From: a bacterium
GTDB lineage: Bacteria; Hydrothermota; 32-111
Direction of reading: 5' to 3'
Assembly (NCBI GenBank): GCA_050239825.1
Contig: JBFXGO010000044.1
Location: 1 to 17,257 of the forward strand
Length of the DNA stretch: 17,257 bases
Below the pieces are notes generated by a model. The model ran no database searches. It saw only the letters and a program-made list of their open reading frames with translations, and had not been told where the DNA came from. The position numbers and the translations under genes are program-made. Position 1 is the first letter of the stretch; each line of letters opens with the position of its first letter. Shown here piece after piece: positions 2,807-17,185 of this stretch.

Positions 2807-3955
2807 ATGCAGAATATCAAGACTGGGGAAAGTTTTTATACGGAGATGAATTATGAGAAGGTTATTTGGCTGATTAACCTGAGATTCATTTTGATTGCAA
2901 TGCTCTCAATAACTTTTGCAATTCTCTACACACTAAAGAGCCCAATAGATTTTTCCGCTCCTTCCAATCTTATATTCGGCTGGATGGGCATCTGCTTTGT
3001 TCTTAACTTCCTTCTTCTTTTGGATATAAATTATTTAAAACAAAAGAAGCACATACTTATTGATGAAAATAACTTCAAATATATCAGTTTCATTCACATT
3101 GATTTCGACATAATCTTCGTGCTTGTAACGATAACACTCACAGGCGGATTGGAGTCACCTCTTGTAGTTCTTCTAATGTACAATATAATAACAACTTCGT
3201 TTATTATACATGACAATTATATTTTTTTCTACACAGCCATAACAATGTTGATGCTCATTCTTTCAAGCTTTAGGTTCGTTCTCCTTCCTGTTTTTCCTTA
3301 CTTGAACGTATCCTTTGAATCGCACATGTATAAGGCTATATTCACCGTTTTTATATTCTCTTTTCTTTCATACCTTTCAAAGTACATCTCTTCAAAACTC
3401 AGCCAGAAACAGGAAGAGCTGAACAATCTCTACGAGAATACATACCGGCTTTCAATCACTGACAGGCTTACCGGCCTTTATGACCAGACCTACTTCAGAG
3501 TGGCGGCATCCGACGCTATTGATATAGCTTTAACAAACAACTACAATTGCGCAATGGTAATGTTTGACATAGACAATTTCAAGGAATTCAATGATACAAA
3601 CGGTCATCTTGCAGGTTCAAGCGCTCTTAAAGAAATTGCGGAGATTATGCGCAAGACTTTCAGAAAGAGCGACCTGTTGGGGAAATACGGAGGAGACGAA
3701 TTCGTAATACTCATGAAGGATGTCGAAGAGGAGTATCTGCCTTTTGTTCTTGAAAGATTCAAAAGACGAGTTGCCGAGCATGATTTCAACCCAAAGACAG
3801 GAAGAGTGTCCACATTAACAATATCCCTTGGCGCTTCTATGTTTCCCAAAAACGGCAATACGGTCGAGAACCTAATAGATAAAGCCGATAAAGCTCTTTA
3901 CAATTCCAAAAAAGCAGGGAAAAACAGGTTATTTATTTTTGATAACGGTAAATAG
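2807..3955 (+). CDS. Membrane-anchored GGDEF dinucleotide cyclase (diguanylate cyclase family; Hypr-type D-to-S signature, candidate 3',3'-cGAMP synthase)
   Basis: About 5-6 hydrophobic helices in aa ~18-195 and a coiled linker. Then TDRLTGLY, FDIDNFKEFNDTNGHLAGS, I-site RKSD (3662-3673), GGDEF (3689-3703), TISLG and ADKALYNSKKAGKN. Alternative start ATG at 2846. Confidence 0.95.
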   Translation: MQNIKTGESFYTEMNYEKVIWLINLRFILIAMLSITFAILYTLKSPIDFSAPSNLIFGWMGICFVLNFLLLLDINYLKQKKHILIDENNFKYISFIHIDFDIIFVLVTITLTGGLESPLVVLLMYNIITTSFIIHDNYIFFYTAITMLMLILSSFRFVLLPVFPYLNVSFESHMYKAIFTVFIFSFLSYLSKYISSKLSQKQEELNNLYENTYRLSITDRLTGLYDQTYFRVAASDAIDIALTNNYNCAMVMFDIDNFKEFNDTNGHLAGSSALKEIAEIMRKTFRKSDLLGKYGGDEFVILMKDVEEEYLPFVLERFKRRVAEHDFNPKTGRVSTLTISLGASMFPKNGNTVENLIDKADKALYNSKKAGKNRLFIFDNGK

Positions 3956-5422
3956 AATCTTCACTATCTCCGGGTCATAGTGTTTCCCGGAATTTTCTTT
4001 GAAGATTTCATCAATATGACTCTCTGTCAATTTGAAAATTGACTTGAAAACATTATACTCACCGGCAATTCTTATAATTCTTGACCCAAGCGGAATCTTT
4101 GTTTCGGCAAGTCCTTCCGGTAAACCTGACCCGTCATAATTCTCGTAAAGATGCCTGATTATATATTGAGCATTTTCAAGAAATACGAGAGGCGCGATTA
4201 TCTCCGCTCCGCTTAATATTGAATCCCTGATGACAGGGAATTTATCTTCATTGAAATAGTTTGACGCCGTAAAAAGCTCTTTGGGGGCCGATGTAAGTCC
4301 GAGAAGGTGGAGAAGTGCGGCATACTGGATGCTCCTTAAATCATCATCCGGCAGATTCATTTTTTTGGCGATCTTAACGGATGTCGATGAAACAGCTTCA
4401 GAGATCTTTTTGAGTCCGGGATGAGCCCTGTTCTCGATTAGCAAAAACGCGATCAAAGACTCAAGATAACTTCTTCTTGAATCCTCAAAAAATTTTGCCG
4501 TGAGAAGTATGTTTGTTATGATGATTCTCACTATTTCAAAGAACAAACTTTTTATTCCGGCGCTTTCCTCGCTTTTTAAATCCATTATGAAGAGACCCAT
4601 AACGATATTTCCCGATGCCAAAGGCACGGTTATGGTCTTATATTCTGTTTTTCCCCTGATTGAGAAGTCCTCATACACTTTTAGATTTGTAAAATACTGT
4701 TTGAATTGATTCTTGCTTATCTTTGTGCCTTCAGGAAATTCCTTTGAAAAATCATGCTCCTTCTTTACAATTAAATTTCCTGTCTTCTCTTCATTTATCA
4801 GAGCGGCCATCGCCTCCGGCTTGAAGATCTCGTCAATTTTCTGGAAAAGATTCATAGAGGATGTTTCGACGGATTTAACCTGCGAAACACTCTCTGAAAA
4901 TTTTTTCAGTTTTTCTATGCCTTCGATAAGATCTTCCAGACTTCTGTCCGCCTCTTCTTTCTGCTTTGTCACAACGTTGTTGGCGTTCATCAATTCATCG
5001 TTGATCTGCTGTATGTCATTGTTCAATCTTTCCTTGTCAAGAAGCAGTTGGCGTTTTTCATAGGCATTCTTCAGAACAAGCATCATAGTATCAGCAGTGA
5101 ATGGTTTTGTCACGAAATCGTAGGCTCCGCTTCTGATACATGAAAGAGCTACATTCAGGTCTATTGTAGCTGCCATTGTTATTATCGGCGAATAAGGATT
5201 GTTTGTTGAAAACTGAGAAATAAAATCCAAAACATTGAAATTATTCAAATTTAAATCCAATATTATTACTGCATATTCATTTCCGTCTATAAATTGTGAA
5301 AATGTCGCGCCATCTGTTGCGATATCAATCTCAAGGTTGTTAGGATTATCGTACTCAACGATCTTCTTAAGAAAATTGGCTACTAAAAGCTCTGAATCGG
5401 CTATAAGTACTTTTTCACTCAT
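3929..5422 (-). CDS. Response regulator: REC + coiled coil + GAF-like + degenerate HD-GYP domain, 497 aa
   Basis: REC: VLIADSE, IILD56, GAYDFVTK106PF. HD-GYP-like C-terminus: YAALLHLLG, IIRHLYENYDGSGLPEGL, IPLGSRII, SGKHYDPEIV. Overlaps the upstream kinase by 8 nt. Confidence 0.9.
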   Translation of the reverse strand: MSEKVLIADSELLVANFLKKIVEYDNPNNLEIDIATDGATFSQFIDGNEYAVIILDLNLNNFNVLDFISQFSTNNPYSPIITMAATIDLNVALSCIRSGAYDFVTKPFTADTMMLVLKNAYEKRQLLLDKERLNNDIQQINDELMNANNVVTKQKEEADRSLEDLIEGIEKLKKFSESVSQVKSVETSSMNLFQKIDEIFKPEAMAALINEEKTGNLIVKKEHDFSKEFPEGTKISKNQFKQYFTNLKVYEDFSIRGKTEYKTITVPLASGNIVMGLFIMDLKSEESAGIKSLFFEIVRIIITNILLTAKFFEDSRRSYLESLIAFLLIENRAHPGLKKISEAVSSTSVKIAKKMNLPDDDLRSIQYAALLHLLGLTSAPKELFTASNYFNEDKFPVIRDSILSGAEIIAPLVFLENAQYIIRHLYENYDGSGLPEGLAETKIPLGSRIIRIAGEYNVFKSIFKLTESHIDEIFKENSGKHYDPEIVKILFTVIKNK

Positions 5423-8400
5423 TTGATTGTTTTGTCGGAAGTGAAATTATGAAAGAGACTCCGTCAGGCATGTTTTGAGCTCTTATTGTGCCGTGATGCT
5501 CCTTTATTATATTGTATGAGATTGCGAGACCAAGCCCTGTGCCTCCGCTTTTCGTAGTAAAGAAAGGTGTAAAGATTTTAGCAAGAAGCTCTTCTTCTAT
5601 CCGCGGTCCGGAGTTAAATACTTCAAGGAGCGTCTCCTTTTCACTCTGGCTAACTATGATTTTAATATTTCCATTTTTATTCATCGCTTGAACTGCATTC
5701 AGAAAAATATTTATCAGCACTTCGACAATTTGTTCTTCATCTATATCAATAAGATGAAGATTATCCGGAATCTCTTTTTTTATGTTTATTCCTGCTTCAT
5801 TTAGCCTGCCCTTAACTATCTCCAAAGCATGCTCTATAACATTGTTTAGATTTGTCTGTGTCACGATTCTTGTCTTTGTCTTAGCAAATGAAGTCATGTC
5901 ATTCACAAGCCTGTCCAATCGTCTTACTTCTTTGATTATCAGGTCTATGGATTCTCCGTAAATCGTATTTTCGTCTCCGAACTGCATCTTGAGAAACTCC
6001 ATTCCGGTGAGTATTCCGGCCAGAGGATTCTTTATTTCATGAGCCATGCCTGCGGCCATCTGTCCCAGAGCGGCAAGATTCTCCTTTGCTTTCAGTTCGC
6101 TTTGAATTCTTTTAATCTCCGATAAATTCTGTATAATGCAGACAATGTCAAGGTTGTTTTTTGTTTTTATCGGTGTAATGCTGATTCCGCAGGGTACAGG
6201 TTCCTTCGATTTCGATATAAGCTCTATTTCCGACCTGAAAATGGGTTTTTCGGATTTAATCACCTTCTGGATTATGTTGTTTTTGTCATTGAAAACTTTG
6301 CGATATTTTTTTCCAAGCACCTCTTTTTCGGAGAATCTGCTTATCCTGGAAAATGTTCTGTTCACATGTTTTATTATTCCATCGCTGTTCATGTAAATTA
6401 CTCCTGAAGGCAGATTCTCCAATATCAGGTTGGACACTTGGCCATCCTTGTCGCTTCCCATGAACTGCTCCAAGGCTATTATCGCCGTATTTGCAAGAGT
6501 TTCCAGAAACTGAGCGTCAGATTCGTTGAAATTGCCGCTCCTTTTATTGTCAACGCATATAACTCCCACTGTCTCTCCTCCGTGAACAAGAGGCACATTG
6601 ACCATGTTGTAAACGGTGTAGACCTTTGACAGATTCGCCATTTTAACAAAATTTTCATCCGTTTTTGTATTGTTGACGATTGCAGACTTTCCGCTTTTTG
6701 CAACATTTCCAGCAACGCCGACTCCTATCTTTATCTTTATGTCTTTTATCTCTTCTATGCTTACTCCAGATGCCGATTTGAAGACAAGGTAATTGCCATC
6801 CCTCAAAAGCAGAGTGGCAATTGAACCGTCGACGATTTCAATCGCGGAAGACAGAAGATAGTTGAAAAAATCCTCAATATTTTTTACATTTGTCAGCTTT
6901 TCGGCGAGTTTGCTTATGATATTGTACTGCTTTATCTTCTTCTCATTCTCTTGAAAAAGAATTGCATTTTCAAACTTCATTCCGAGTTCCTGAATAATCG
7001 CATTGTATGTGTCATCGGAGATTTTATCATTCACTCTGTTTTCATTGCATAGAAGAAGAATATATCTATGATTTTCAGTTATGTTTATAGGAAGTGCTAT
7101 GACCCTGTTCATCTTTTTTGAAAATATCATCATTGCAGTCTTTGAATCTCCGTCAAGGTGAGATGCGGTCTGCAAACTGTCAAAGAACTCTCCGGACATG
7201 TTTTGTCTTCCTTTCAGATAATCTTTAAACTTCTGATCTGCAAAGTAAGTCTCGGAAATCAAGTACCTGCTGCCGGAAACATCGCTTTCATTTTTAAAAA
7301 GAAGAGTCATGTCAGATTTTGTAGTGCTTCCCATTGTAGTTGTGACAATCCTTCTTAAAAGCTGAATATTCAAAACGGTGCGGATACTTGTGAATATCTT
7401 ATAAAGAAACGAAAGTTGTTCGATCTTGTTTTCGGTGTCCATTTGAAGAAGAAGAGATTTCACATAGCTTGAGGAATTATTGGCAATTATTTTCACCATT
7501 TCGAAATCTTCATTTGAAAATGGAGTCTCTCCGTACCTTGTCAGCATCAGAACTCCAACAAATTCACCTTTGAAGTTCACAGGTACGGCTATGGCTGCCT
7601 GACGCCTCTTTTTGTATCCTTTGCTGTACTCCACATTTTTGAATTCAAGCGCATTGTCAAGTATTATCGGCTCGTTGAGTTTTGCCACTGTTCCGACAAT
7701 ACCCTGACCCATTACAAATGTCTTCAGCATCAGCTGTTCTTGGTCCTCTCCGACGGCCGCAACCGCTCTTAACTCATCTTCCTTGCGGGTTTTCACGACA
7801 AAAAAGCATCTGTCTGCCGTTAGCTCTTCCGAAACCATCTCCATAAGATTCCTGAATGTCTTCTGATACTCTTTTGTCTGAGAGAGGACTTTGGATATCT
7901 TTAAAACAAACTCAAGTTTTTTAAGATTCTCTTTTTTCTCCTCATATGAGAATGCTTTGTCAAAAACAATTCCGATGTGATTGAAGAATGCATCAAGAAA
8001 TCCCAACTCGTTCCTCTCCTTTGAAACATCATAAGAAAATTCCAAAATAAAATCGACATAGTGGGTTTTATTGAAAATCACAGGCACAAGAACCACAGAT
8101 TCGTTTTTTGTGCTTGAAGAGACTTTCATCAGATCATTTTTTTCAGAAAATATTTTCACCTGACTCACATTCAGAGACTTGAGATGGTGCAGACCTGCCA
8201 TTGTTTTAATGTCCTGGCAAAGAGCCATATCCTTCGCTTTGTATTCGTATATTCTGTCATTCATCTTGTTAATTATAAATAATTTGTTGAATGACAGATG
8301 TTCGCTTAAATATTTGGAGATGCTTGACATCAGAGGATTGATTTCGATCGTTTCTGTAAGAATCGCATTTAGGTCATTGACCACTTCACTCTTCTTCTGC

Positions 8401-9416
8401 ACCATCTCATATTCTACTTCAAGCATTTTCTTTTCCGTGATGTCGTCGATGAGTATAACAGCTCCAACAGACCGCCCGCCCTCAACTATGGGGTATCCAT
8501 AGAGATTCTGCACAACCTCTTTTTTCATTCTTTTAGAGTATCTCTTCAAATTGAGTATTTTCTTAGATTTCTTCTGCTCCATTATTTCAACGAATATTTT
8601 ATCAAGCTTGAGTTTTAAAAAATCGGGGAACAACTCAAATATATTTTTACCGATTATCTCTTCCTTCGAGAAAGCATACTTATCCTGCGTGAACCTGTTG
8701 AATTTGATAATGTTTCCCTCTTTGTCCAGAACAATAATTCCCTGGGCAATCGAATCAAAAATCAGGTCCTGCATCCTCTTAAGCCCTTCAATTTCTCTTG
8801 ACCATCCTTCCTTCTCTTTAATATCATGTATTACCAGAATTTTCATATCTGCCCACTGCATCACTTTGATTTTAGCTGAAGCAAGGTCTCCGTTTTTGTC
8901 ATATATCTCGATGATAAAGTTGTTTTTCCCTTCCTTAATTCCGGTGAGAACCTCTTCAAGATACTGCGGGGGAAGAATCTCGCTGAAGAAAGATCCGACA
9001 AGAAGACTCTCACTGAATCCATATCTTACAGAGAAAATATAATTGGTGTAAATTATTTTATTGCCTGAATCAAGAATTATGACTGATTCGTCAATAGAAT
9101 TGACTATGTCATTGATGAAAATAATATCGTAGACAGAGGTGTTCTTAAATTCACTGCCATCAATTGCTATAAATTTCTTGTTGATAGGGTCTTCCACAAC
9201 AACAATGCCGTCCATTCTGTGAGTTATCAAAGATGATTTGTCTTTTGACGGTTTAATTTTTGACAAGGTGCTGTTAAGAATCATCGGGTTCGTTTTAAAA
9301 ATGCTTTTTGCAGGAATATCATTGTTTTTGTCCGGTTTGCCGTCATACCCGGTTACTAAATAATTTATATTATTAATTTTAAGCAGTCGGAGAAAACTTG
9401 ACATAACATCTTTCAT
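5415..9416 (-). CDS. Cytoplasmic multi-sensor histidine kinase (approx. PAS-PAS-GAFx4-PAS-HisKA-HATPase_c), 1333 aa
   Basis: PAS starts IVNSIDESVIILD, IFDSIAQGIIVLD and ILENLPSGVIYMN. Clear GAF motifs GQGIVGTVAK...AIAVPV...VGVL and GVGVAGNVAKSG...NVPL...VGVICV, plus two more divergent GAF-like blocks. H-box AHEIKNPL, N-box NIFLNAVQA, F-box IFTPFFTTK, G2 GGTGLGL. No TM helix seen. SD TAAGGA overlaps the TPR gene stop. Confidence 0.95.
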   Translation of the reverse strand: MKDVMSSFLRLLKINNINYLVTGYDGKPDKNNDIPAKSIFKTNPMILNSTLSKIKPSKDKSSLITHRMDGIVVVEDPINKKFIAIDGSEFKNTSVYDIIFINDIVNSIDESVIILDSGNKIIYTNYIFSVRYGFSESLLVGSFFSEILPPQYLEEVLTGIKEGKNNFIIEIYDKNGDLASAKIKVMQWADMKILVIHDIKEKEGWSREIEGLKRMQDLIFDSIAQGIIVLDKEGNIIKFNRFTQDKYAFSKEEIIGKNIFELFPDFLKLKLDKIFVEIMEQKKSKKILNLKRYSKRMKKEVVQNLYGYPIVEGGRSVGAVILIDDITEKKMLEVEYEMVQKKSEVVNDLNAILTETIEINPLMSSISKYLSEHLSFNKLFIINKMNDRIYEYKAKDMALCQDIKTMAGLHHLKSLNVSQVKIFSEKNDLMKVSSSTKNESVVLVPVIFNKTHYVDFILEFSYDVSKERNELGFLDAFFNHIGIVFDKAFSYEEKKENLKKLEFVLKISKVLSQTKEYQKTFRNLMEMVSEELTADRCFFVVKTRKEDELRAVAAVGEDQEQLMLKTFVMGQGIVGTVAKLNEPIILDNALEFKNVEYSKGYKKRRQAAIAVPVNFKGEFVGVLMLTRYGETPFSNEDFEMVKIIANNSSSYVKSLLLQMDTENKIEQLSFLYKIFTSIRTVLNIQLLRRIVTTTMGSTTKSDMTLLFKNESDVSGSRYLISETYFADQKFKDYLKGRQNMSGEFFDSLQTASHLDGDSKTAMMIFSKKMNRVIALPINITENHRYILLLCNENRVNDKISDDTYNAIIQELGMKFENAILFQENEKKIKQYNIISKLAEKLTNVKNIEDFFNYLLSSAIEIVDGSIATLLLRDGNYLVFKSASGVSIEEIKDIKIKIGVGVAGNVAKSGKSAIVNNTKTDENFVKMANLSKVYTVYNMVNVPLVHGGETVGVICVDNKRSGNFNESDAQFLETLANTAIIALEQFMGSDKDGQVSNLILENLPSGVIYMNSDGIIKHVNRTFSRISRFSEKEVLGKKYRKVFNDKNNIIQKVIKSEKPIFRSEIELISKSKEPVPCGISITPIKTKNNLDIVCIIQNLSEIKRIQSELKAKENLAALGQMAAGMAHEIKNPLAGILTGMEFLKMQFGDENTIYGESIDLIIKEVRRLDRLVNDMTSFAKTKTRIVTQTNLNNVIEHALEIVKGRLNEAGINIKKEIPDNLHLIDIDEEQIVEVLINIFLNAVQAMNKNGNIKIIVSQSEKETLLEVFNSGPRIEEELLAKIFTPFFTTKSGGTGLGLAISYNIIKEHHGTIRAQNMPDGVSFIISLPTKQSNE

Positions 9417-9696: not shown

Positions 9697-10401
9697 TTAT
9701 ATTTTATCAATCTTTTCAAGATGCTCCTTTATGCCTATTATAATAAGAACATCTCCTTCGACAATCTGTTCCTTTGGAGAAGGAGAGATGATCGTGGTTT
9801 CCTCGAAATCATTTGTAAAATTATCGGCAGCTGTCGGCACATTTCTCTTAATGGCTATTATATTAACATCAAATCTCTTCCTGATGTCAATCTCTTCCAG
9901 AGTTCTTCCAAAAAATGAAGAGGGGGCTTTTATTTCCACTATGTTGTGTTTTTCTGAGAGTTCTATCATATCAAAAATATTCGGTGAAACAAGAGTGTCG
10001 GCAAGCCGCTTCGCGCTTTCGTACTCGGGAAAGATTATACGGTCAACCCCTATCTTCTCAAGAACCTTTGCATGCTTATGGTCGGTGGCTTTTGCTATTA
10101 CATTTTTTATCTTAAGGGTGTCTTTCAGATATGTGCATATCAGAAGACTTGATGCAACATCGTCGCCTACGGAGACAATAGCCGTATTGACATCCTCCAT
10201 ACCTATCTCTTTCAAACTCTGTTCATTTGTAGCATTCATCTGAACGGCATGCGCGACTTTATTGACAATATTTTCAACCTTTTCTTCATCAGCATCAATC
10301 GCCAAAACCTCCATTCCCTTCTCCGACAGAATGGTTGCTACGGCATTGCCGAAATTCCCAAGTCCGATAACCGCATAAACATGTTCTTTTTTCTTGTCCA
10401 T
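9697..10401 (-). CDS. ktrA: Ktr/Trk potassium uptake regulatory subunit (KtrA/TrkA family; RCK_N + RCK_C), 234 aa
   Basis: Rossmann motif VIGLGNFG, VLAID, IAKA...H.KVLEKIGVD.IIFPE, and RCK_C IDIRKRFDVNIIAIKR. SD GGAGG. Confidence 0.95.
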   Translation of the reverse strand: MDKKKEHVYAVIGLGNFGNAVATILSEKGMEVLAIDADEEKVENIVNKVAHAVQMNATNEQSLKEIGMEDVNTAIVSVGDDVASSLLICTYLKDTLKIKNVIAKATDHKHAKVLEKIGVDRIIFPEYESAKRLADTLVSPNIFDMIELSEKHNIVEIKAPSSFFGRTLEEIDIRKRFDVNIIAIKRNVPTAADNFTNDFEETTIISPSPKEQIVEGDVLIIIGIKEHLEKIDKI

Positions 10402-10409
10402 ATATCCTC

Positions 10410-11786
10410 CTATCCGACCGTAATTTTTGTTTCAGGATACTTTATAGTTTCTGACCGGTCTCTCGTAATAAATAGATTTATACTGGTCATGATTCCTATT
10501 CTACCAATTATCATTACAATTACCACCAATAGTTTTCCCATCCAAGTAAAACCGCCGGATAGGGAAAGGTTTGTTCCCGGGAGACCGCACGAAAGGCCTA
10601 CCGTTCCATAAGCGGAGACTATCTCAAAAAGCACTTTGAAAGCATCGAAAGATTCAAATACAAGAAGCAGAAGATATGATACCGCAATGAGAAAAAGCGA
10701 TATAGAGAAAATAAAGTATGACCTGAAAATTGTCTCCTCATTTATATTCCTCCTAAAAATGTTCAAACGTTTCCTTCCCTTGAGTTTGTTTATCATGGCA
10801 CTTATTACGATAAAAATCGTAGTGGTTTTTATTCCTCCCCCCGTTCCTCCCGGAGAGGCGCCGATAAACATTAAGACAATGAACATGAAGATTGTCGCAT
10901 TTTTCATTATACCCAAATTGAGAGTGTTAAATCCTGCAGTGCGCGGTGTGATTGACTGAAGACCTGTATTGATAAGTTTGTTGAAGATAGTCAAATCGGA
11001 GAGGGAATTGTTCCTCTCAAGGAAGAAAAAGAGAACAAACGGCACCAATATGAGTATAACGGTCATTATAAAAGCAATCATAGTGTGAACCTGAAACTGC
11101 CTCCTTTTTTTGAAAAGGTTCCTTCTCACATCTCCTATTGCTATGAATCCGAAGCCTCCAGTTATTATAAGCAGAGATATAACTATGCAGGCAATAGGGT
11201 CATTTCTCATTATGACAAAATTTTCGGAAAACAAACTGAATCCGGCGTTGCAGAAAGCCGACACTGAATGAAAGATCGAGAACCATGCCGCTTTGAGAGG
11301 ATTTTCAACATGCCTCATCATGTTTGGCATCAGAAGGAGAGCTCCCGCGGTTTCAATCAAAAATGTAAATGTCATGACATTCAAAAGAAATCTCTTTATG
11401 TTCTGAGCTGAGAATCTCTGAAACTCGTCAATAGTTTGATACCTCACATTTGCATTAAGTTTTTTTGCTACGGAAACCGACAGAAATGTGCTGAGTATCA
11501 TGTATCCCAAACCACCGAGTTGAATCAGCAGAAGTATAACCGCATGTCCGAAAGGAGTAAAGAAATGCTCGGTGTCCTGCACTATAAGTCCGGTTACACA
11601 GACTGACGATGTTGATGTGAAGAGTGCATCTATGAATGATATACCCGCGCTCTCCTTTATTGACACCGGAAGAAGAAGCAGAAGGGTGCCTGCAATAATT
11701 ATAACGCCGTAGCCGACAAGAACGGTTATCGAGGGATTACTCTTTCTGAGAGTAAAATTGTCATTTATAGAGTATTTTGATCGCAT
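10410..11786 (-). CDS. ktrB: Ktr/Trk potassium uptake membrane subunit (KtrB/TrkH family), ~458 aa
   Basis: Four pore-loop motifs SSVCVTGL, SAFCNAGF, TPRTAGF and SAYGTVGL; gate loop FIGASPGGTGGGIKTT; C-terminal YPE..I.VG. Start placed at ATG 11786 behind SD GAGGA, overlapping the end of lon by 26 nt. Confidence 0.95.
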   Translation of the reverse strand: MRSKYSINDNFTLRKSNPSITVLVGYGVIIIAGTLLLLLPVSIKESAGISFIDALFTSTSSVCVTGLIVQDTEHFFTPFGHAVILLLIQLGGLGYMILSTFLSVSVAKKLNANVRYQTIDEFQRFSAQNIKRFLLNVMTFTFLIETAGALLLMPNMMRHVENPLKAAWFSIFHSVSAFCNAGFSLFSENFVIMRNDPIACIVISLLIITGGFGFIAIGDVRRNLFKKRRQFQVHTMIAFIMTVILILVPFVLFFFLERNNSLSDLTIFNKLINTGLQSITPRTAGFNTLNLGIMKNATIFMFIVLMFIGASPGGTGGGIKTTTIFIVISAMINKLKGRKRLNIFRRNINEETIFRSYFIFSISLFLIAVSYLLLLVFESFDAFKVLFEIVSAYGTVGLSCGLPGTNLSLSGGFTWMGKLLVVIVMIIGRIGIMTSINLFITRDRSETIKYPETKITVG

Positions 11787-14073
11787 CGTCAATCCTCTCA
11801 ATGAAATAAATCTTTATATCTTTCTTCACTCTCGCGGGAAGCTCTACAAACTGGGCTTTATTTGCGGCAGGAATTATTACATTGTTTATGCCAGCCGATT
11901 GAGCGGCCACAAGTTTTTCCTGAAGACCGCCGATTGGAAGTATTATTCCGCGGAGGGTCACCTCTCCGGTCATTGCAAAATCTCTTCTCAGAGGCTTATT
12001 TATCAATGCCGAGAAGAGTGACATCGTTATTGTGATTCCTGCAGAAGGTCCGTCCTTTGGGATTGAACCTTCAGGCACATGTATGTGAATATCATACTTC
12101 GTAAAAAAATTCTTCTCTATTCCGTATTTTTGTGAATACTTCCTAAGCCAGCTTATTGAGGCGGATGCCGACTCTTTCATCACCTCTCCGAGCTGTCCGG
12201 TAAGCTGAACCTTGCCGCTCCCGTCCAAAAGAAGCGTTTCCATGGAGAGAGTAGCTCCGCCATACGGAGTCCAGGCAAGACCCCTCGCCACTCCAATAAG
12301 GGATTTTTTATCCTTCGCCTCTGTCATAATCAAAGGAGAACCAAGATACTTTGTGAGAAGTTTTGAAGATACTCGGATATTGCTTTTTTTCTCATTTGAC
12401 GCAATCTCCTTAGCGCGTTTTCTCATAACCTTTGAAATGGTCTTTTCAAGAGAGCGCACACCGGATTCCATAGTATATTTTTTGATAATGTCCTTTAAAG
12501 CAGAATCATCTATAGTTATGTCCTTCGCAGTCAGCCCTGATTCCTTCATTGTTCTTGGTATCAGAAATCTTTTTGATATTTCGAATTTCTCAAAATCGAG
12601 ATAACCCGGTAGATTTATTATTTCCATCCTGTCTCTCAGAGCCGGAGGTATTGTGTGCACAACATTTGCTGTGCAGATAAAGAGAACATTTGAAAGGTCA
12701 TAGTCAATTTCAAGGTAATGGTCAACGAATGCATTATTTATCTCAGGATCAAGCACTTCAAGAAGAGCGCTTGAAGGGTCTCCTTTAAAGTCAGAACCCA
12801 ATTTGTCTACTTCATCAAGCATGAATACAGGATTCATCACTCCGCCGCGCTTCATCATCTGAATAATCCTACCCGGCATTGACCCAATATATGTTTTCCT
12901 GTGCCCCCGTATCTCGGCTTCATCTCTTACTCCGCCAAGAGACAGACGCACGAATTTTCTGCCCAATGCCTGCGCAATGGATTGTCCGAGAGAGGTTTTC
13001 CCAACTCCGGGAGGACCTGAGAAGCAGAGTATCTGACCCTTAACCTGCTTCGCCATTTTGATAACAGCAAGATATTCAAGAATCCTCTCCTTAACCCTGT
13101 CAAGGCCGAAATGATTTCTGCTCAGTATCTTTTCGGCAAGTTTTATGTCCAAATTGTCCTTGGTCTTGCTGTGCCAGGGTATTGAGCAGAGCCAGTCAAG
13201 GTAATTTCTTATAACCGTGGCTTCCGGAGAGAGCGGCGCCATCGTCGCCAGTTTGTTCAGCTCCGCCAATGCCTTCTTCTCGCTCTCCTCATTCATTTTT
13301 GCTTTTAGTATTTTTGCCTTTATCTCTTCAAATTCATCAACAGCACTGCCTCCGAATCCAAGTTCTTTTTTTATTATCTTAAGCTGTTCGTTTAAAAAAT
13401 ACTTCTTCTGATTTTCTGCTATATCCTTTGTCACCTCTTTGTTTATTTTCTCCCTTAATTCATTCATATAAATCTGCTCAGAGATTATCTTGAGTATTTC
13501 AGTTGCTTTTTTTTCAATCTCGGAGATCTCAATTATCTTTAAAAGCCTTTCCTTCGGTGCTTCTATAAGCGGTAATGTGGTATCACATAGAATGCTTAGA
13601 TCCTTTGCTCCCATCACTCTCATCAGATCTTCATAAATGATTCTTAAGGGGGTGAACTTTGAAAGTTTCTGAGCTTCACTTTTTATCGAAATCAAAAGAG
13701 CGTTCTCTTTTGATTTGTCGTCCATCTCCTTGAATTCCACTACCTTTGCCTTGACTTTAAAGTACCCGCTGAAATCTATCCTCTTCTCAATTAAAACATA
13801 TTGAAGAGGATAAAGAATCAGCCGTATCGATGTATCCTTTGTTTTTTCAATATTGGCGATTTTTGCGACTACACCAGATAAATGCGAAGATGAAGAGTAT
13901 TCTATTGCAATCGTGTCATCAATATTAAAAGTAACTTGTTTGAGGTTGATATCAACTTTGTCAATCAGATCAAGCTTCTCCAGCTGATGCTTGAAGAAGA
14001 GAGGGTACTTTTCCTTTCCCCTGATATCAATCAAAACATGAAGATAATTGGAATCGAAAGTTTCTTCATTCAT
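11761..14073 (-). CDS. lon: ATP-dependent Lon protease (LonA), 770 aa
   Basis: Walker A GPPGVGKT, EIRGHRKTYIG, Walker B MLDEVDK, catalytic Ser PKDGPSAG, catalytic Lys IGGLQEK. ATG immediately follows the clpX TAG. Confidence 0.98.
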   Translation of the reverse strand: MNEETFDSNYLHVLIDIRGKEKYPLFFKHQLEKLDLIDKVDINLKQVTFNIDDTIAIEYSSSSHLSGVVAKIANIEKTKDTSIRLILYPLQYVLIEKRIDFSGYFKVKAKVVEFKEMDDKSKENALLISIKSEAQKLSKFTPLRIIYEDLMRVMGAKDLSILCDTTLPLIEAPKERLLKIIEISEIEKKATEILKIISEQIYMNELREKINKEVTKDIAENQKKYFLNEQLKIIKKELGFGGSAVDEFEEIKAKILKAKMNEESEKKALAELNKLATMAPLSPEATVIRNYLDWLCSIPWHSKTKDNLDIKLAEKILSRNHFGLDRVKERILEYLAVIKMAKQVKGQILCFSGPPGVGKTSLGQSIAQALGRKFVRLSLGGVRDEAEIRGHRKTYIGSMPGRIIQMMKRGGVMNPVFMLDEVDKLGSDFKGDPSSALLEVLDPEINNAFVDHYLEIDYDLSNVLFICTANVVHTIPPALRDRMEIINLPGYLDFEKFEISKRFLIPRTMKESGLTAKDITIDDSALKDIIKKYTMESGVRSLEKTISKVMRKRAKEIASNEKKSNIRVSSKLLTKYLGSPLIMTEAKDKKSLIGVARGLAWTPYGGATLSMETLLLDGSGKVQLTGQLGEVMKESASASISWLRKYSQKYGIEKNFFTKYDIHIHVPEGSIPKDGPSAGITITMSLFSALINKPLRRDFAMTGEVTLRGIILPIGGLQEKLVAAQSAGINNVIIPAANKAQFVELPARVKKDIKIYFIERIDDAIKILYK

Positions 14074-15246
14074 CTAAATTCCCTTTTCAAATTCCTTTAT
14101 ATCCTTATCAGTTATCATTATCTTTCTGCCGGATTTTGAAGAGGGCAGTTCAAACATCAGGTCAAGCATGAATGTCTCTATTACCGACCTCAGTCCTCTC
14201 GCTCCGGTCTTCCTTTCGACCGCTTCTTTGGCAATGTAATCAAGAGCCGAATCTGCAAAATCAAGCTCTATTCCGTCAAGAGAAAGAAGTTTTTTATATT
14301 GATTGACGAGAGAATTCTCCGGTTCATACAGAATTCTTTTCATCTCTTCAAGGTTAAGTTCAAATAACGGTGCAATAACGGGGAATCTTCCTACAAATTC
14401 AGGTATCATTCCATAAGATACGAAATCCCTCTGTTCGGCCTTCTTCAATATTTTTTTGTCATCTTCTTTATGTTGCGTTTGTTTGAAACCTATCTGAGAT
14501 TTGTTTATCCTTGATTTTATTGTCTCATCAAGATAATTGAACGCTCCACCGGCAATAAAAAGGATGTTCTTTGTGTCCATCTGCAGATATTTTTGTTCGG
14601 GATGTTTTCTTCCTCCCTGAGGAGGTATGTTGGCAACCGTGCCTTCAAGTATTTTCAGAAGAGCCTGCTGAACACCTTCACCCGACACATCCCTTGTTAT
14701 GGAAGGATTGCCAGCCGTTTTGCTTCCGATTTTGTCTATTTCATCTATATAACATATTCCAATCTGAGCCTTCTCGATGTCATAATCTGCTGATATTATA
14801 AGGCGAAGAAGTATATTTTCCACATCCTCTCCAACATAACCAGCTTCGGTCAGTGATGTGGCGTCTGAAATGGAGAAAGGCACATTTAATATTGATGCGA
14901 GACAACGAGCTATGAGAGTTTTTCCAACACCGGTCGGTCCAAAGAGGAGTATATTGGATTTATCAATTCCTGAAACATCATCTGCGAAGACTCTTTTGTA
15001 GTGGTTGTAAACTCCCACCGAAACAACTTTTTTTGCATAATCCTGACCGATAATAAATTTGTCCAGTTCTTCTTTAATCTCTTTTGGCTTTAAAACATTC
15101 ACTCTTTTCTTTTTCCTATTCTCAGCAACCAAAATTGCCTTTTCCTTTATGCATTCAAGACATACTTTGCTTCCGTCTTCAGCTATATATGCATACTCCT
15201 TTATAACATTTCCGCAGAGAGAGCAGAGATTATCCTTTTTTTTCAT
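14074..15246 (-). CDS. clpX: ATP-dependent Clp protease ATP-binding subunit ClpX, 390 aa
   Basis: C4 zinc site CSLC...[12 protein letters not shown], pore loop [32 protein letters not shown] loop, IGF loop, TGARGLR. Confidence 0.98.
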
Positions 15247-15832
15247 TTACTTTCCTTGATAAAAGAATATTGTCTATGATACCGTACTTTTGCGCCTCTT
15301 CAGAGTTCATCCAAAAATCTCTGTCAGAGTCGGTTTCAATCTGGTTTATAGGTTTTCCCGTATGTTTGGATACTATCGCATTCAAAGTGCTTCTTGTGCG
15401 CAGTATTTCGCGCGCATGTATTTCAATGTCGGAAGCCTGACCCTGCACTCCGCCGAGAGGCTGATGTATAAGAATTCTTGAATTCGGAAGAGAGAATCTT
15501 TTTCCTTTCTCTCCCGCCATCAGGATAACTGCCGCCATTGAAGCGGCAACACCCATGCAGATTGTTGAAACCGGGCATTTTATATACTGTATCGTGTCAT
15601 AAATTGCCAGACCGCTCGACACAAGACCGCCGTTGGAATTTATATAAAGATTTATATCCTTCTCCTGATTGTCCGCCTCTAGAAAGAGCATCTGCGCAAT
15701 CACAAGGTTTGCGGTATCGTCATCTATAGCTCCACCAAGGAAGATTATTCTGTCAACGAGAAGCCTTGAATAAATATCATACCCTCGCTCCCCTCTTCCC
15801 GTTCGTTCGACCACCATTGGTATCATCGGCAT
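15230..15832 (-). CDS. clpP: ATP-dependent Clp protease proteolytic subunit ClpP, 200 aa
   Basis: DIYSRLL..RIIFL and catalytic triad motifs AASM, IHQP and DRD. SD AGGAG. Confidence 0.98.
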
Positions 15833-15847
15833 ATTTCTCTCCTTTTT

Positions 15848-17086
15848 CTATTCGTAGATTACTTTGCTTATGATGAGGTCTCTGACTTTCGTAAAAACTA
15901 TATCGCGCGCAATGTCATCGCGTATATCTTCTGAATCTGCCATATTCCGAACTTTCATGTCAGGATGCTTCTTAATTTCGTCAACCTGCTTTGAAATCTC
16001 ATCCTCTTGCGCCTCTATTTTCTCCTGTTGGGCAATAGTGTGGAGAATGACCTCCCTCTTTGCCCGCCACACGGCATAATTCATGTATAGTTCGCGGAGC
16101 TTTGAATCATCCTTCATCTCTTCCTTGTTCTGTTTCTTCAATGAATTGATTATCGCTTCAAGATGCATGAGAATAAGCGTCTCTGGGACTTCGAAAGGAT
16201 TCTTCTCAATCAGATTGTTTATGACCAATTCATCCCGTTCAAGTTCGAAATCTCTTTCAAAATCGCGCGTTATTCTCTTTTTTGTCATATCAAAAATTTC
16301 GCTGTACGAGTTGAAGCCAAGTTTCTTTGCGAACTCTTCATTGTCTGTAATGAGAATTTTCTTCTTTGTTTCTTTTATCTTTATCTTAATGTTGACTTCC
16401 TTCCCCTTGAGCAATTCGTCCTGATAATCATCTGCATATTTGTATCTGAATTCGAACTCGGCTCCCTTGTTTTTCCCGGTCAGATTCTCTATAAAGACGG
16501 GAAGTATTTCACCTTCAGCAATTTCCACGGAATAGTTGGAATACTTCATCTCCTCAATCTCCTTGCCCTCCGAGTCAAAGACAGAGAGGTCAATAATCGC
16601 GATATCCTGCTTTTCAAGCGGACCCTCTTTATCCTCTATTTTTGCATACATATTTCTGATTATGTTGATGTTGGACTCTACCACATCATCTGTCACTTCC
16701 TTCTTCTTTAGATTGATTTTTATTTCATCGTATCCGTTCATCTCTTTCTCCGGAAATACATCAAATTCTATCTCACAATTGAATGAATCAAGTTTTCTTT
16801 CAACATTCTTCACATAAGGTCTAGATAAAGGATTTATATTTTTTTCCTTTATTGCCACTACAAGAGCTCTCTGCATGAGCTTTTCCTCGGCCTCCTCCTC
16901 GATATTCTTTTTATATCTCTGTTCAATAAGAGAAGATGGCGCTTTCCCCGGCCTGAATCCGTCCATTTTTGCGCCTCGTTTTACATCCTCAAGCTGAATT
17001 TTATACTCTGCAAGGAATTCTTCGTTTGTGAATGATGCAGAAATAGTCATGCGCCATTTGTCTGATAGATTTGTCGTGTAATTCAT
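15848..17086 (-). CDS. tig: Trigger factor, 412 aa
   Basis: Ribosome-binding signature GFRPGKAP, FKBP-like middle domain, helical C-domain (FEVPETLI); canonical position before clpP. SD AAGGAG. Confidence 0.96.
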   Translation of the reverse strand: MNYTTNLSDKWRMTISASFTNEEFLAEYKIQLEDVKRGAKMDGFRPGKAPSSLIEQRYKKNIEEEAEEKLMQRALVVAIKEKNINPLSRPYVKNVERKLDSFNCEIEFDVFPEKEMNGYDEIKINLKKKEVTDDVVESNINIIRNMYAKIEDKEGPLEKQDIAIIDLSVFDSEGKEIEEMKYSNYSVEIAEGEILPVFIENLTGKNKGAEFEFRYKYADDYQDELLKGKEVNIKIKIKETKKKILITDNEEFAKKLGFNSYSEIFDMTKKRITRDFERDFELERDELVINNLIEKNPFEVPETLILMHLEAIINSLKKQNKEEMKDDSKLRELYMNYAVWRAKREVILHTIAQQEKIEAQEDEISKQVDEIKKHPDMKVRNMADSEDIRDDIARDIVFTKVRDLIISKVIYE

Positions 17087-17103
17087 AGTTTCTCCTTAAT
17101 TTA

Positions 17104-17185
17104 TGCGAAAGGGGGGAGTTGAACCCCCACAGAGTTACCTACTGGATCCTAAGTCCAGCGCGTCTGCCAATTCCGCCACTTTCGC
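17104..17185 (-). tRNA. tRNA-Leu (anticodon UAG), CCA not encoded
   Basis: Minus strand GCGAAAG-TG-GCGGAATTGGCAGACGC-G-CTGGA-CTTAGGA-TCCAG-TAGGTAACTCTGT-GGGGG-TTCAACT-CCCCC-CTTTCGC-A. It has a 7-bp acceptor stem, TAG anticodon, long variable arm and discriminator A followed by TAA. Confidence 0.97.

Follow-up and report, generated by a model that had tools for sequence, protein, structure and literature searches.

The known Hypr-type GGDEF cyclases come mainly from Geobacter, Myxococcus and Bdellovibrio. They have been described as rare, making up 0.17% of GGDEF domains, and are described as also yielding c-di-AMP and accepting other purine NTPs. The parts of the eLife 2019 study (PMC6456294) on which we draw assign roles to a metal-binding Asp, an Asn at the sugar face and a general-base Glu, report GGDE[F/Y] as the only motif form among natural Ser/Thr enzymes, and propose a 'Goldilocks' model in which a Ser-type site requires the central Asp of GGDE[F/Y]. 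In the same account, the S348D exchange makes GacA a diguanylate cyclase, a cross-dimer Arg occurs in 94% of predicted diguanylate cyclases and favours guanine, and Hypr enzymes with a cross-dimer Tyr, Ser, Ala or Gln make predominantly cGAMP. Cabther_A1065 and Ddes1475 are listed there as Hypr enzymes with relatively more c-di-GMP, and the canonical GGDEF enzyme GSU3350, which has a GGDEF motif, was still a pure diguanylate cyclase after the D-to-S exchange, so that Ser alone is not sufficient. Elsewhere, the S214D exchange in Bd0367 is described as abolishing cGAMP synthesis, GacB is counted among the Hypr enzymes and described as inhibited by c-di-GMP, and the membrane-bound Ser-type enzyme GSU1937, whose GGDEF domain has been swapped into the Rec-linker scaffold of GacA, is described as contributing to cGAMP in vivo (PMC8835794). 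The literature searched on Hypr cyclases contained no report of a product test on any member of the 6TM-GGDEF family described below.

Here, we analysed a 17,257-nucleotide stretch of DNA (the window, at its full length), which contains a gene for a protein with a six-transmembrane (6TM) domain and a GGDEF domain. The features of this gene are as follows.

2772-2800, + strand: promoter-like site TTGACA-17-TAATAT just 5′ of the GGDEF ORF, from a consensus scan; a pattern match only
2807-3955, + strand: 6TM-GGDEF gene (P0001), 382 aa, from the ORF list and translation; PF25323 + PF00990
2846-3409, + strand: N-terminal membrane sensor domain, PilS-like 6TM, residues 14-201 (PF25323 6TM_PilS)
3455-3928, + strand: GGDEF catalytic domain, residues 217-374 (PF00990; the genome search gave the same coordinates)
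3485-3487, + strand: Gln227 (CAG), cross-dimer position; GacA has Tyr304 here, and most diguanylate cyclases have Arg
3617-3619, + strand: Ser271 (TCA), base-specificity position, equivalent to PleD D344 and GacA S348, by alignment to 6D9M
3662-3673, + strand: RxxD I-site R286-K-S-D289, five residues ahead of GGDEF
3689-3703, + strand: GGDEF motif G295-F299 with central Asp297; Lys293 upstream in place of the usual Arg

The translation of 2807-3955(+) reads DIDNFKEFNDTNGHLAGSSAL...RKSDLLGKYGGDEF, and residues are numbered from M1. The start codon may be either M1 (2807) or M14 (2846), the latter being considered because the alignments with orthologues begin only at residues 6-17. The promoter scan returned 22 sites, where 8.4 would be expected for a stretch this rich in AT. 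Both domains scored above their curated Pfam cut-offs: residues 14-201 matched 6TM_PilS with an E-value of 3.4e-10 (40.4 bits, cut-off 27), and residues 217-374 matched PF00990 with an E-value of 2.6e-39 (135 bits, cut-off 23.8). The GGDEF domain also reached 151.5 bits with TIGR00254 (cut-off 37.4), and the protein scored 152.6 bits with the NCBIfam PleD model, below its cut-off of 474. The Pfam scan of the protein gave no HAMP match. In the AlphaFold2 model (mean pLDDT 88.2), helices span residues 7-42, 53-79, 87-112, 118-133, 138-153 and 174-217, and a GGxxSP motif of the membrane domain (G113, G114, S117, P118) occupies invariant columns in the family alignments.

The closest structure to the GGDEF domain, both by sequence (E-value 2.6e-27) and by Foldseek (E-value 5.8e-15), was 6D9M, a T4 lysozyme fusion of the Hypr GGDEF domain of G. 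metallireducens GacA. The phmmer alignment to 6D9M is ungapped, with 'ndtnghlagss' of the query over 'ndthghlvgsq', and therefore Ser271 falls on the specificity Ser of GacA; it lies 24 residues N-terminal of G295 of GGDEF and 9 residues C-terminal of N262. In phmmer alignments with the D-type structures 3IGN, 4WXO and 4URS, this column holds Asp. The region of Gln227 also aligns to 6D9M without gaps (LTGLYDQTYF over LTGLFNYRYL). Position 228, the second Arg of the NRR / N-x-R turn, is Thr here and mostly Met or Thr in the family. D254, D256, K259, N262, D297 and E298 are all present, E298 being the residue aligned with the general base of GacA. Thus, all three residue features published for Hypr enzymes are found in this protein, namely Ser271, a GGDEF motif with a central Asp, and a non-Arg cross-dimer residue, Gln227. 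The sequence-only reading had located a Ser at the PleD D344 position of an intact GGDEF domain; the translation and motif reading agree with its coordinates, residues and spacings, and the 6D9M alignment, together with the catalytic and RxxD residues, upholds the assignment. It was also right that TCA matches neither GAT nor GAC at any of its three bases, and as Ser is moreover invariant in the orthologues, a sequencing error or a chance Ser is ruled out. A decayed GGDEF domain is likewise ruled out by the invariance of the catalytic residues in the family.

Of the 120 homologues whose alignment reaches column 271, 107 have Ser there, 105 of them together with Gln; the 13 homologues bearing Asp are the lowest-ranked matches and have other architectures. 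Alignment A1 comprises 56 sequences at 25-77% identity. It shows no variation at Q227, S271, D254, D256, K259, R286, D289 or GGDE, and conservation of N262 reaches 90% or more. Ser271 is invariant in alignment A3 as well. Within the same class as the window, all 17 orthologues found carry the Ser + Gln signature, and the Asp-bearing close orthologues that would have spoken against the earlier assignment did not appear. The named relatives come from WOR-3 / 'Stahlbacteria', Aminicenantes, Acidobacteria and Chrysiogenales, and public sources label relatives 'diguanylate cyclase (GGDEF)-like protein', in keeping with the earlier expectation that pipelines label such enzymes as plain diguanylate cyclases. 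Among the best 150 protein-representative matches, most proteins matched in two or more stretches and about 10 were single-stretch, full-length relatives; therefore no family size is drawn from that list.

The retention of Ser exceeds what would be expected by chance, as only 2 of 88 GGDEF domains from unrelated genomes carry Ser at this position (83 carry Asp and 3 Asn). This background sample came from a contig search with the family alignment, which matched general GGDEF patterns and so returned unrelated GGDEF genes. One Geomonas genome and two from Bdellovibrionota were also reached through this contig search. In a pool of 529 GGDEF domains, the 122 Ser/Thr types, which include 11 non-family domains from Rec-, GAF- and TM-linked proteins, all have the GGDEF Asp and none has a cross-dimer Arg; among the 390 Asp types, 282 have GGEEF and 304 the cross-dimer Arg. 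Position 293 is Lys in 109 of the 122 Ser/Thr-type domains versus 1 of the 390 Asp-type domains. Arg228 is kept in 11/11 non-family Ser/Thr domains and is replaced in the 6TM-GGDEF family. Judged by these sequence counts, the family departs from the other Ser/Thr types examined at position 228 and at Lys293. The genome of the window encodes four GGDEF proteins, and Ser is found in the 6TM-GGDEF protein only; since the other three, which are Asp types, have His, Tyr and Lys at the cross-dimer position, the non-Arg Gln227 is less telling in this genome.

To place the domain, columns 227 and 271 were taken out and a quick maximum-likelihood (ML) tree of GGDEF domains was built. The 6TM-GGDEF family (SH-aLRT 90) and a GacA-type group (85) form separate groups on an unresolved backbone, with 57 of the 106 inner branches unresolved. 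Forcing the family together with the GacA-type group was not rejected (p-AU 0.774), nor was forcing it together with an Asp-type Rec-GGDEF clade (p-AU 0.975), which gave the higher likelihood, and these AU tests are without power because both constrained trees beat the free search. The tree thus supports neither a grouping of the GGDEF domain with the GacA clade nor a split between the two. A probable GacA orthologue from Geomonas azotofigens (L111) was assigned by architecture and motifs rather than by annotation. A Bd0367-like Rec-GGDEF protein from a Bdellovibrionota MAG (L124), which has Met + Ser at the signature positions, branches elsewhere in the tree than the 6TM-GGDEF family.

Downstream of the 6TM-GGDEF gene, two genes are found on the opposite strand.

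3929-5422, − strand: Rec-degenerate-HD-GYP gene, with a receiver, a central region and a degenerate HD-GYP domain (Pfam Response_reg + HD_5)
5415-9416, − strand: PAS/GAF/PAS histidine kinase, 1333 aa (Pfam); 8 nt at its end are shared with the start of the Rec-HD-GYP gene

The Rec-degenerate-HD-GYP gene is convergent with the GGDEF gene, and their 3′ ends overlap by 27 nt. Its HD_5 match reaches 94 bits, and with motif positions fixed by alignment to 4MCW/4MDZ the protein reads HL for HD, LYE for HHE, GLP for GYP and IFKL at the RPYK region, so that it lacks the HD-GYP phosphodiesterase motifs (HD, GYP, HHE, Rxx(K/R)). This loss is common to 13/13 orthologues of the protein, and the gene occupies the same place in 12/12 other genomes of the same family group. 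The histidine kinase gene lies directly upstream of the Rec-HD-GYP gene in 4/4 other genomes fetched, at 38-51% identity, and is its probable operon partner. A complex prediction for the GGDEF domain and the neighbour's degenerate HD-GYP domain, run without controls, scored 0.00 and carries no weight in either direction as to binding. In the sister family group, the HD-GYP adjoining the orthologue is catalytic and reads RPYR. A GGDEF-HD-GYP pairing across the wider family was also considered and was not found in the Aminicenantes/Acidobacteria-type branch, where 17 of 22 downstream ORFs tested encode a GH77 4-alpha-glucanotransferase and none an HD-GYP protein.

We propose that the gene product is a homodimeric, membrane-anchored GGDEF nucleotide cyclase, in which the PilS-like 6-TM sensor would be coupled to the catalytic domain via the long helix of residues 174-217. 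In an active site that carries the full published Hypr signature, Asp297 (GGDEF, not GGEEF) would maintain the Mg-to-Ser distance needed by a Ser-type site, and Gln227 would stand in for the guanine-favouring cross-dimer Arg. Given this signature, the enzyme would most likely accept ATP besides GTP. We therefore consider it probable, at roughly 0.55, that the 6TM-GGDEF family represents a new membrane-sensor subfamily of Hypr-type cyclases, and we infer that the protein encoded in the window makes cGAMP, dimerises and is controlled by its membrane domain.

The main alternative to this Hypr-type reading, which we regard as unlikely, is that the enzyme is strictly a diguanylate cyclase: Ser would replace Asp, the conserved Ser/Gln/Lys set would act on GTP affinity, kinetics or regulation and not on base choice, and c-di-GMP would be the only product. 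The GSU3350 exchange, as described, offers a precedent, and the Asp-type enzymes of the same genome are also without the cross-dimer Arg. The signalling partners found in the genome all fit c-di-GMP: it encodes an RPYK HD-GYP and an EAL domain, and the cyclase itself has an RxxD I-site. The sequence-only reading had looked to GEMM riboswitches and cGAMP-type HD-GYP enzymes in the genome, and neither expectation was borne out. A search of the 99%-complete genome with RF01051 (GEMM-I) gave 0 matches, a weak result because the control genomes gave 0 too. No HD-GYP of the genome carries Rxx(Q/N), the cGAMP-phosphodiesterase signature described in the portion of bioRxiv 10.1101/600031 used here; the two catalytic HD-GYPs read RPYK and RSYH, and two others are degenerate. 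The HD-GYP paired with the sister-group orthologue has the canonical RPYR, but RxxR is compatible with cGAMP, since v-cGAP1 has Arg at the last position of this motif and RPYR is also the reading in 5Z7C, a cGAMP phosphodiesterase structure. A strict diguanylate cyclase is also harder to reconcile with the natural Ser-bearing enzymes, as GacA, Bd0367 and GSU1937 are described as having made cGAMP, GacB counts among the described Hypr enzymes, and even the relatively c-di-GMP-rich Cabther_A1065 and Ddes1475 are listed with them. Moreover, Ser is strictly kept across 25-77% identity, and given that Asp provides GTP specificity at no known cost, such retention needs a reason.

The genome also contains a gene for a DAC-domain c-di-AMP synthase. 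With dedicated routes to both c-di-GMP (the three Asp-type GGDEF proteins) and c-di-AMP present, a fourth, Ser-selected cyclase fits a distinct product, and c-di-AMP supply is a less likely role for the 6TM-GGDEF enzyme. The same gene weighs against the improbable case that the main product is neither cGAMP nor c-di-GMP, being mostly c-di-AMP at cellular ATP:GTP or an other-purine dinucleotide, with Gln227, position 228 and Lys293 reshaping the pocket beyond the GacA type. The described product range of Hypr enzymes, with c-di-AMP and other purine NTPs, would allow this, and the three near-substrate positions do differ from other Ser/Thr types and co-vary with Ser; however, the Hypr literature consulted offered no example of an enzyme with such a main product. 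Least probable of all, and very much so, is a catalytically silent GGDEF protein acting as a nucleotide receptor or scaffold: the degenerate HD-GYP domain in the same locus would be in line with it, but invariant D254, D256, K259 and GGDE, with N262 conserved as noted, do not form a decay pattern.

A bolder version of the Hypr-type reading, which we offer as a speculation with long odds, would make the protein the first representative of a hitherto overlooked clade of membrane-sensor GMP-AMP cyclases (6TM PilS-like, N/D-Q-x, GHxxGS, K-YGGDEF) that carries cGAMP signalling into uncultured lineages. In the lineage of the window, the adjoining, catalytically dead HD-GYP would then serve as the cGAMP receptor in place of a riboswitch, under the PAS/GAF histidine kinase; the conserved pairing with this degenerate HD-GYP response regulator makes it a candidate for the missing protein receptor. 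If active, the 6TM-GGDEF family would widen the reach of GGDEF-made cGAMP to uncultured phyla, and automatic 'diguanylate cyclase' labels would hide a second messenger system. Its natural variation at positions 227, 228 and 293 provides material on base choice by GGDEF enzymes.

Among the described systems, GacA (GSU1658 / Gmet_1914, 6D9M), the Rec-linked enzyme of Geobacter, is the best PDB match by sequence and fold, and it shares with the 6TM-GGDEF protein the specificity Ser, the central Asp, a non-Arg cross-dimer residue, Asn262, the general-base Glu and RxxD. The two differ in their sensors, Rec and a GAF-like region in GacA and a 6-TM membrane domain here; in the cross-dimer residue, Tyr in GacA and Gln here, without the Arg that follows it in GacA; and in the residue before YGGDEF, Arg in GacA and Lys here. 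A GEMM-Ib riboswitch as in GacA systems was not found in the genome of the window. G. sulfurreducens has a second Hypr enzyme, GSU1937. Like the 6TM-GGDEF protein, it is a membrane-anchored, Ser-type member of the GGDEF family, but by its description it has HAMP and GGDDF, whereas the present protein has GGDEF and no HAMP match. Bd0367 from Bdellovibrio and GacB from Myxococcus likewise keep the specificity Ser and the I-site, but they are soluble and have other sensor domains (Rec-linked and GAF-linked, respectively). Among solved full-length structures, the nearest in architecture, with six TM helices and a GGDEF domain, is ImcA (PA1851) from Pseudomonas aeruginosa (cryo-EM, 8WCN), which matches with a TM-score of 0.59 over 384 aligned columns at 18% sequence identity. 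ImcA is a diguanylate cyclase; its TM domain is needed for activity, and in the assays described it converts GTP to c-di-GMP (PMC10904736). Finally, PleD and WspR have the GGDEF fold, the metal ligands and the RxxD I-site in common with the 6TM-GGDEF protein, while the canonical Asp (Asp344 in PleD) and cross-dimer Arg of these enzymes are replaced here by Ser and Gln.

We found that the 382-aa protein P0001, translated from the ORF at 2807-3955(+), combines a six-transmembrane (6TM) domain with a GGDEF domain. The stretch quoted in the sequence-only reading, which had noticed an Asp-to-Ser signature of hybrid-promiscuous (Hypr) GGDEF enzymes, matches the translation exactly, and at none of its three bases does the TCA codon agree with either Asp codon. 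The features of the protein, numbered from M1, are as follows:

Residues 14-201: PilS-like 6-TM domain (PF25323; Pfam, 40.4 bits vs a cut-off of 27)
Residues 217-374: GGDEF domain (PF00990; Pfam, E 2.6e-39)
3617-3619 (+): Ser271, codon TCA, 24 residues ahead of G295 and 9 past N262
R286-D289: RxxD site
3689-3703 (+): GGDEF motif, starting at G295

Since the orthologue alignments begin only at residue 6-17, M14 may be the start codon instead of M1. A promoter-like TTGACA-17-TAATAT, within 2772-2809, ends 6 nt ahead of the first ATG, and given this position either the mRNA would be near-leaderless or translation would begin at M14 (2846). Within the membrane domain, a GGxxSP motif (residues 113-118, 3143-3160) is invariant. 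Residues 22-207 matched the NCBIfam ActS/PrrB/RegB redox kinase model at 27.3 bits, far below its cut-off of 350. RegB carries a GGxxNPF quinone-binding loop, and the likeness of GGxxSP to it is a lead only.

A phmmer search over all PDB chains ranked 6D9M, a T4 lysozyme fusion to the Hypr GGDEF domain of G. metallireducens GacA, at the top for P0001 (E 2.6e-27). The alignment is gapless (query 216-376 over chain 163-323) and places Ser271 on the GacA Ser ("ghlagS" over "ghlvgS"), confirming its assignment to the specificity position, while the D-type structures 3IGN, 4WXO and 4URS carry Asp in this column. The lead of 6D9M over the runner-up 3IGN (E 3.1e-27) is negligible, so the PDB ranking by itself is uninformative on kinship. 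6D9M again came first in Foldseek with an AlphaFold2 model built from 56 family sequences (mean pLDDT 88.2; E 5.8e-15). In addition, the P0001 turn LTGLYDQTYF lies over LTGLFNYRYL of GacA, and Gln227 therefore occupies the position of GacA Tyr304.

According to the eLife 2019 study (PMC6456294), Ser348 of GacA touches the base at its Watson-Crick face, and the S348D mutant is a diguanylate cyclase; in its "Goldilocks" model Ser is functional only with GGDEF, not GGEEF, and GGDE[F/Y] is described as the exclusive motif of the natural Ser/Thr enzymes. The same source reports that the cross-dimer Tyr304 stands in for an Arg present in 94% of predicted diguanylate cyclases, and that Hypr enzymes with Tyr, Ser, Ala or Gln at this position give mostly cGAMP, whereas those with Arg give more c-di-GMP. 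Bd0367 is reported to show the same Ser dependence (PLoS Genet 2022, PMC9140294), and the Hypr share of GGDEF domains is quoted there as 0.17%. A membrane-bound natural Ser-type enzyme, GSU1937, is also described (PMC8835794). Judged from its sequence, P0001 carries all three Hypr determinants. Geobacter pilin-related mutants are reported to have altered cGAMP levels (PMC8835794), an intriguing parallel to the PilS-like putative sensor of P0001 that we treat as no more than a lead.

We then examined the conservation of the signature. A word-index search gave 120 homologues. In their alignment with the query (121 sequences), 120 sequences cover column 271, with Ser in 107 and Asp in 13; the Asp-bearing ones are the lowest-ranked homologues and have Rec-, GAF- or other architectures. 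Gln227 and Ser271 occur together in 105 sequences. In a 56-member alignment (25-77% identity to P0001), Q227, S271, D254, D256, K259, R286, D289, G295, G296, D297 and E298 are invariant. Source names of the relatives include 'Candidatus Stahlbacteria', candidate division WOR-3, Acidobacteria, Aminicenantes and Chrysiogenales, and JGI calls relatives 'diguanylate cyclase (GGDEF)-like protein', the plain labelling that had been anticipated. Among 201 genomes of the phylum (E <= 1e-40), 12 of the 13 others in the window's family group carry the gene, as do 4 of 5 in a sister group from the same class, and none of the remaining 182 does. Close orthologues with Asp, named in the sequence-only reading as evidence against itself, were not found: Q, S, GGDEF and RxxD are present in all 17 orthologous loci covering the region.

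Asp is the specificity residue in 83 of 88 unrelated GGDEF domains matched in a genome-contig scan; three others have Asn and two have Ser. The window's own genome (2.1 Mb, 99% complete) encodes four GGDEF proteins, of which P0001 alone is Ser-type; the cross-dimer residue of the three Asp-type proteins is His, Tyr or Lys, so Gln227 is less diagnostic in this organism. One Asp-type protein (G000:C9:35367-37859(-), 830 aa) has an N-terminal GGDEF domain that lacks RxxD; the long region behind this domain contains TPR-like repeats and a GKTS stretch resembling a P-loop. This protein forms the longest tree branch (2.34). In a pooled set of 529 GGDEF domains, a biased sample of non-independent members, the Ser/Thr types have the GGDEF Asp in 122/122 and cross-dimer Arg in 0/122, and the Asp types have GGEEF in 282/390 and cross-dimer Arg in 304/390.

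Eleven of these 122 Ser/Thr domains lie outside the P0001 family (P0001 and its Gln227/Ser271 relatives). They include a probable GacA orthologue of Geomonas azotofigens (L111), which has Rec, NYR, GHLIGS and GGDEY. Bdellovibrionota MAGs contribute Thr-type Rec proteins and a Bd0367-like protein, and TM- or GAF-linked proteins are also among the eleven. Two features separate the family from them, namely position 228 (Met, Thr or other, not Arg) and a Lys just ahead of YGGDEF. Across the pooled domains this Lys occurs in 109/122 Ser/Thr types vs 1/390 Asp types; Lys for Arg thus covaries with Ser/Thr at the specificity position (Lys293 in P0001, 3683-3685), and some Ser-type proteins that do not belong to the Gln family have it too (P0126, P0150, L032). 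A TM-linked GGDEF protein of Geomonas azotofigens (L115:1360-2610(-)) combines GGDEF with a specificity-site Thr and a cross-dimer Met, and could be a further Hypr candidate in a Geobacteraceae genome. Its membrane part contains GRTDSPF, resembling the GGxxSP of the family, and its cluster in the tree (SH-aLRT 95) also contains P0113 (Met/Ser) and a pair of Asp-type relatives.

A quick ML tree was built from 109 GGDEF domains after removal of columns 227 and 271. In it, the 21 family rows cluster with one Asp-type Rec-GGDEF (SH-aLRT 90), and the GacA-type group is separate (SH-aLRT 85), with 57 of 106 inner branches unresolved. Constraining the family to join the GacA group raised the likelihood by 32.7 over the free tree (p-AU 0.774), and a control constraint joining the family with an Asp-type Rec-GGDEF clade raised it by 74.8 (p-AU 0.975). 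Because both constraints beat the free tree, the control more so, the data are as compatible with a Ser shared by descent with GacA as with one that arose separately.

The surroundings of the gene were as follows:

3929-5422 (-): Rec-HD_5 gene, response regulator with degenerate HD-GYP
5415-9416 (-): 1333-aa PAS/GAF histidine kinase
within 9697-17185 (-): TrkA and TrkH (Pfam)
within 9697-17185 (-): ORFs resembling Lon, ClpX, ClpP and trigger factor (translations read by eye)
17104-17185: tRNA

The GGDEF gene converges on the Rec-HD-GYP gene, their 3' ends sharing 27 nt, and the latter also overlaps the end of the kinase gene; the stretch 9697-17185(-) is an ordinary housekeeping block. The Rec-HD-GYP neighbour keeps its position in 12/12 other family-group genomes and the kinase in 4/4 genomes fetched. 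With the motif position checked by alignment to PmGH (4MCW/4MDZ), the neighbour has HL for HD and [LM][YF]E for HHE, without GYP or RPYK, in 13/13 orthologues. Retention of this degenerate state among orthologues of 45-82% identity suggests that the protein has a conserved role other than catalysis. A paralogous ~500-aa response regulator of this kind, also lacking HD, HHE, GYP and RPYK, is encoded at G000:C52:11482-12993(-). The GGDEF gene of the sister group is instead followed, in the same orientation, by a gene for a catalytic Rec-HD-GYP carrying RPYR. L145 has this gene in full, the contig of L143 ends within it, and the remaining two contigs are too short to tell. In the Aminicenantes/Acidobacteria-type branch (P0034-type; metagenome loci L150-L174), 22 downstream ORFs were tested, and 17 of them are a same-strand GH77 4-alpha-glucanotransferase (malQ-like) gene.

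Taken together, the most likely account of P0001 is a membrane-sensor Hypr-type cyclase with cGAMP and c-di-GMP as products (probability about 0.55): its three determinants agree with one another and are under strong purifying selection, and the track record of naturally Ser-bearing enzymes points the same way. The proposal of a cGAMP synthase is thus upheld in its sequence determinants, and is weakened by the missing cGAMP-specific partners and by a D-to-S precedent. Both points favour the main rival, a strict diguanylate cyclase bearing Ser, which we consider less likely. D-to-S in canonical enzymes is reported to have inactivated four of five, and the fifth, GSU3350 (GGDEF), remained a pure diguanylate cyclase (PMC6456294). 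As for partners, the GEMM-I riboswitch (RF01051) had no match in the window's genome, although it had none in any control genome either, and RF00379 had none in the window's genome. Rxx(Q/N), reported as the signature of cGAMP-specific HD-GYPs (bioRxiv 10.1101/600031), is absent from its HD-GYP proteins, of which one has RPYK, one RSYH and two are degenerate. No PilZ was found in this genome, which has one EAL and one DAC domain. The RSYH protein (G000:C54:16494-18413(+)) has intact HD, HHE and GYP but reads RSYH at the Rxx(K/R) site, and its long C-terminal region is TPR-like. The cGAMP-degrading v-cGAP1 is reported to have Arg at the Rxx(Q/N) position (bioRxiv 10.1101/600031), and the cGAMP phosphodiesterase in structure 5Z7C has RPYR, so RxxR enzymes can also degrade cGAMP.

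Among the papers listed in our literature searches, we found none tying Hypr or GGDEF proteins to Aminicenantes, WOR-3, Stahlbacteria or Acidobacteria, although the supplements of the 2016 PNAS and 2019 eLife papers on Hypr enzymes may list such sequences; the P0001 variant occurs in lineages with no cGAMP-signalling link in the literature found. Hypr GGDEFs are already known, and by its sequence features the P0001 family is a distinct conserved variant of them, with a predicted 6TM sensor, an N/D-Q-x turn and K-YGGDEF.
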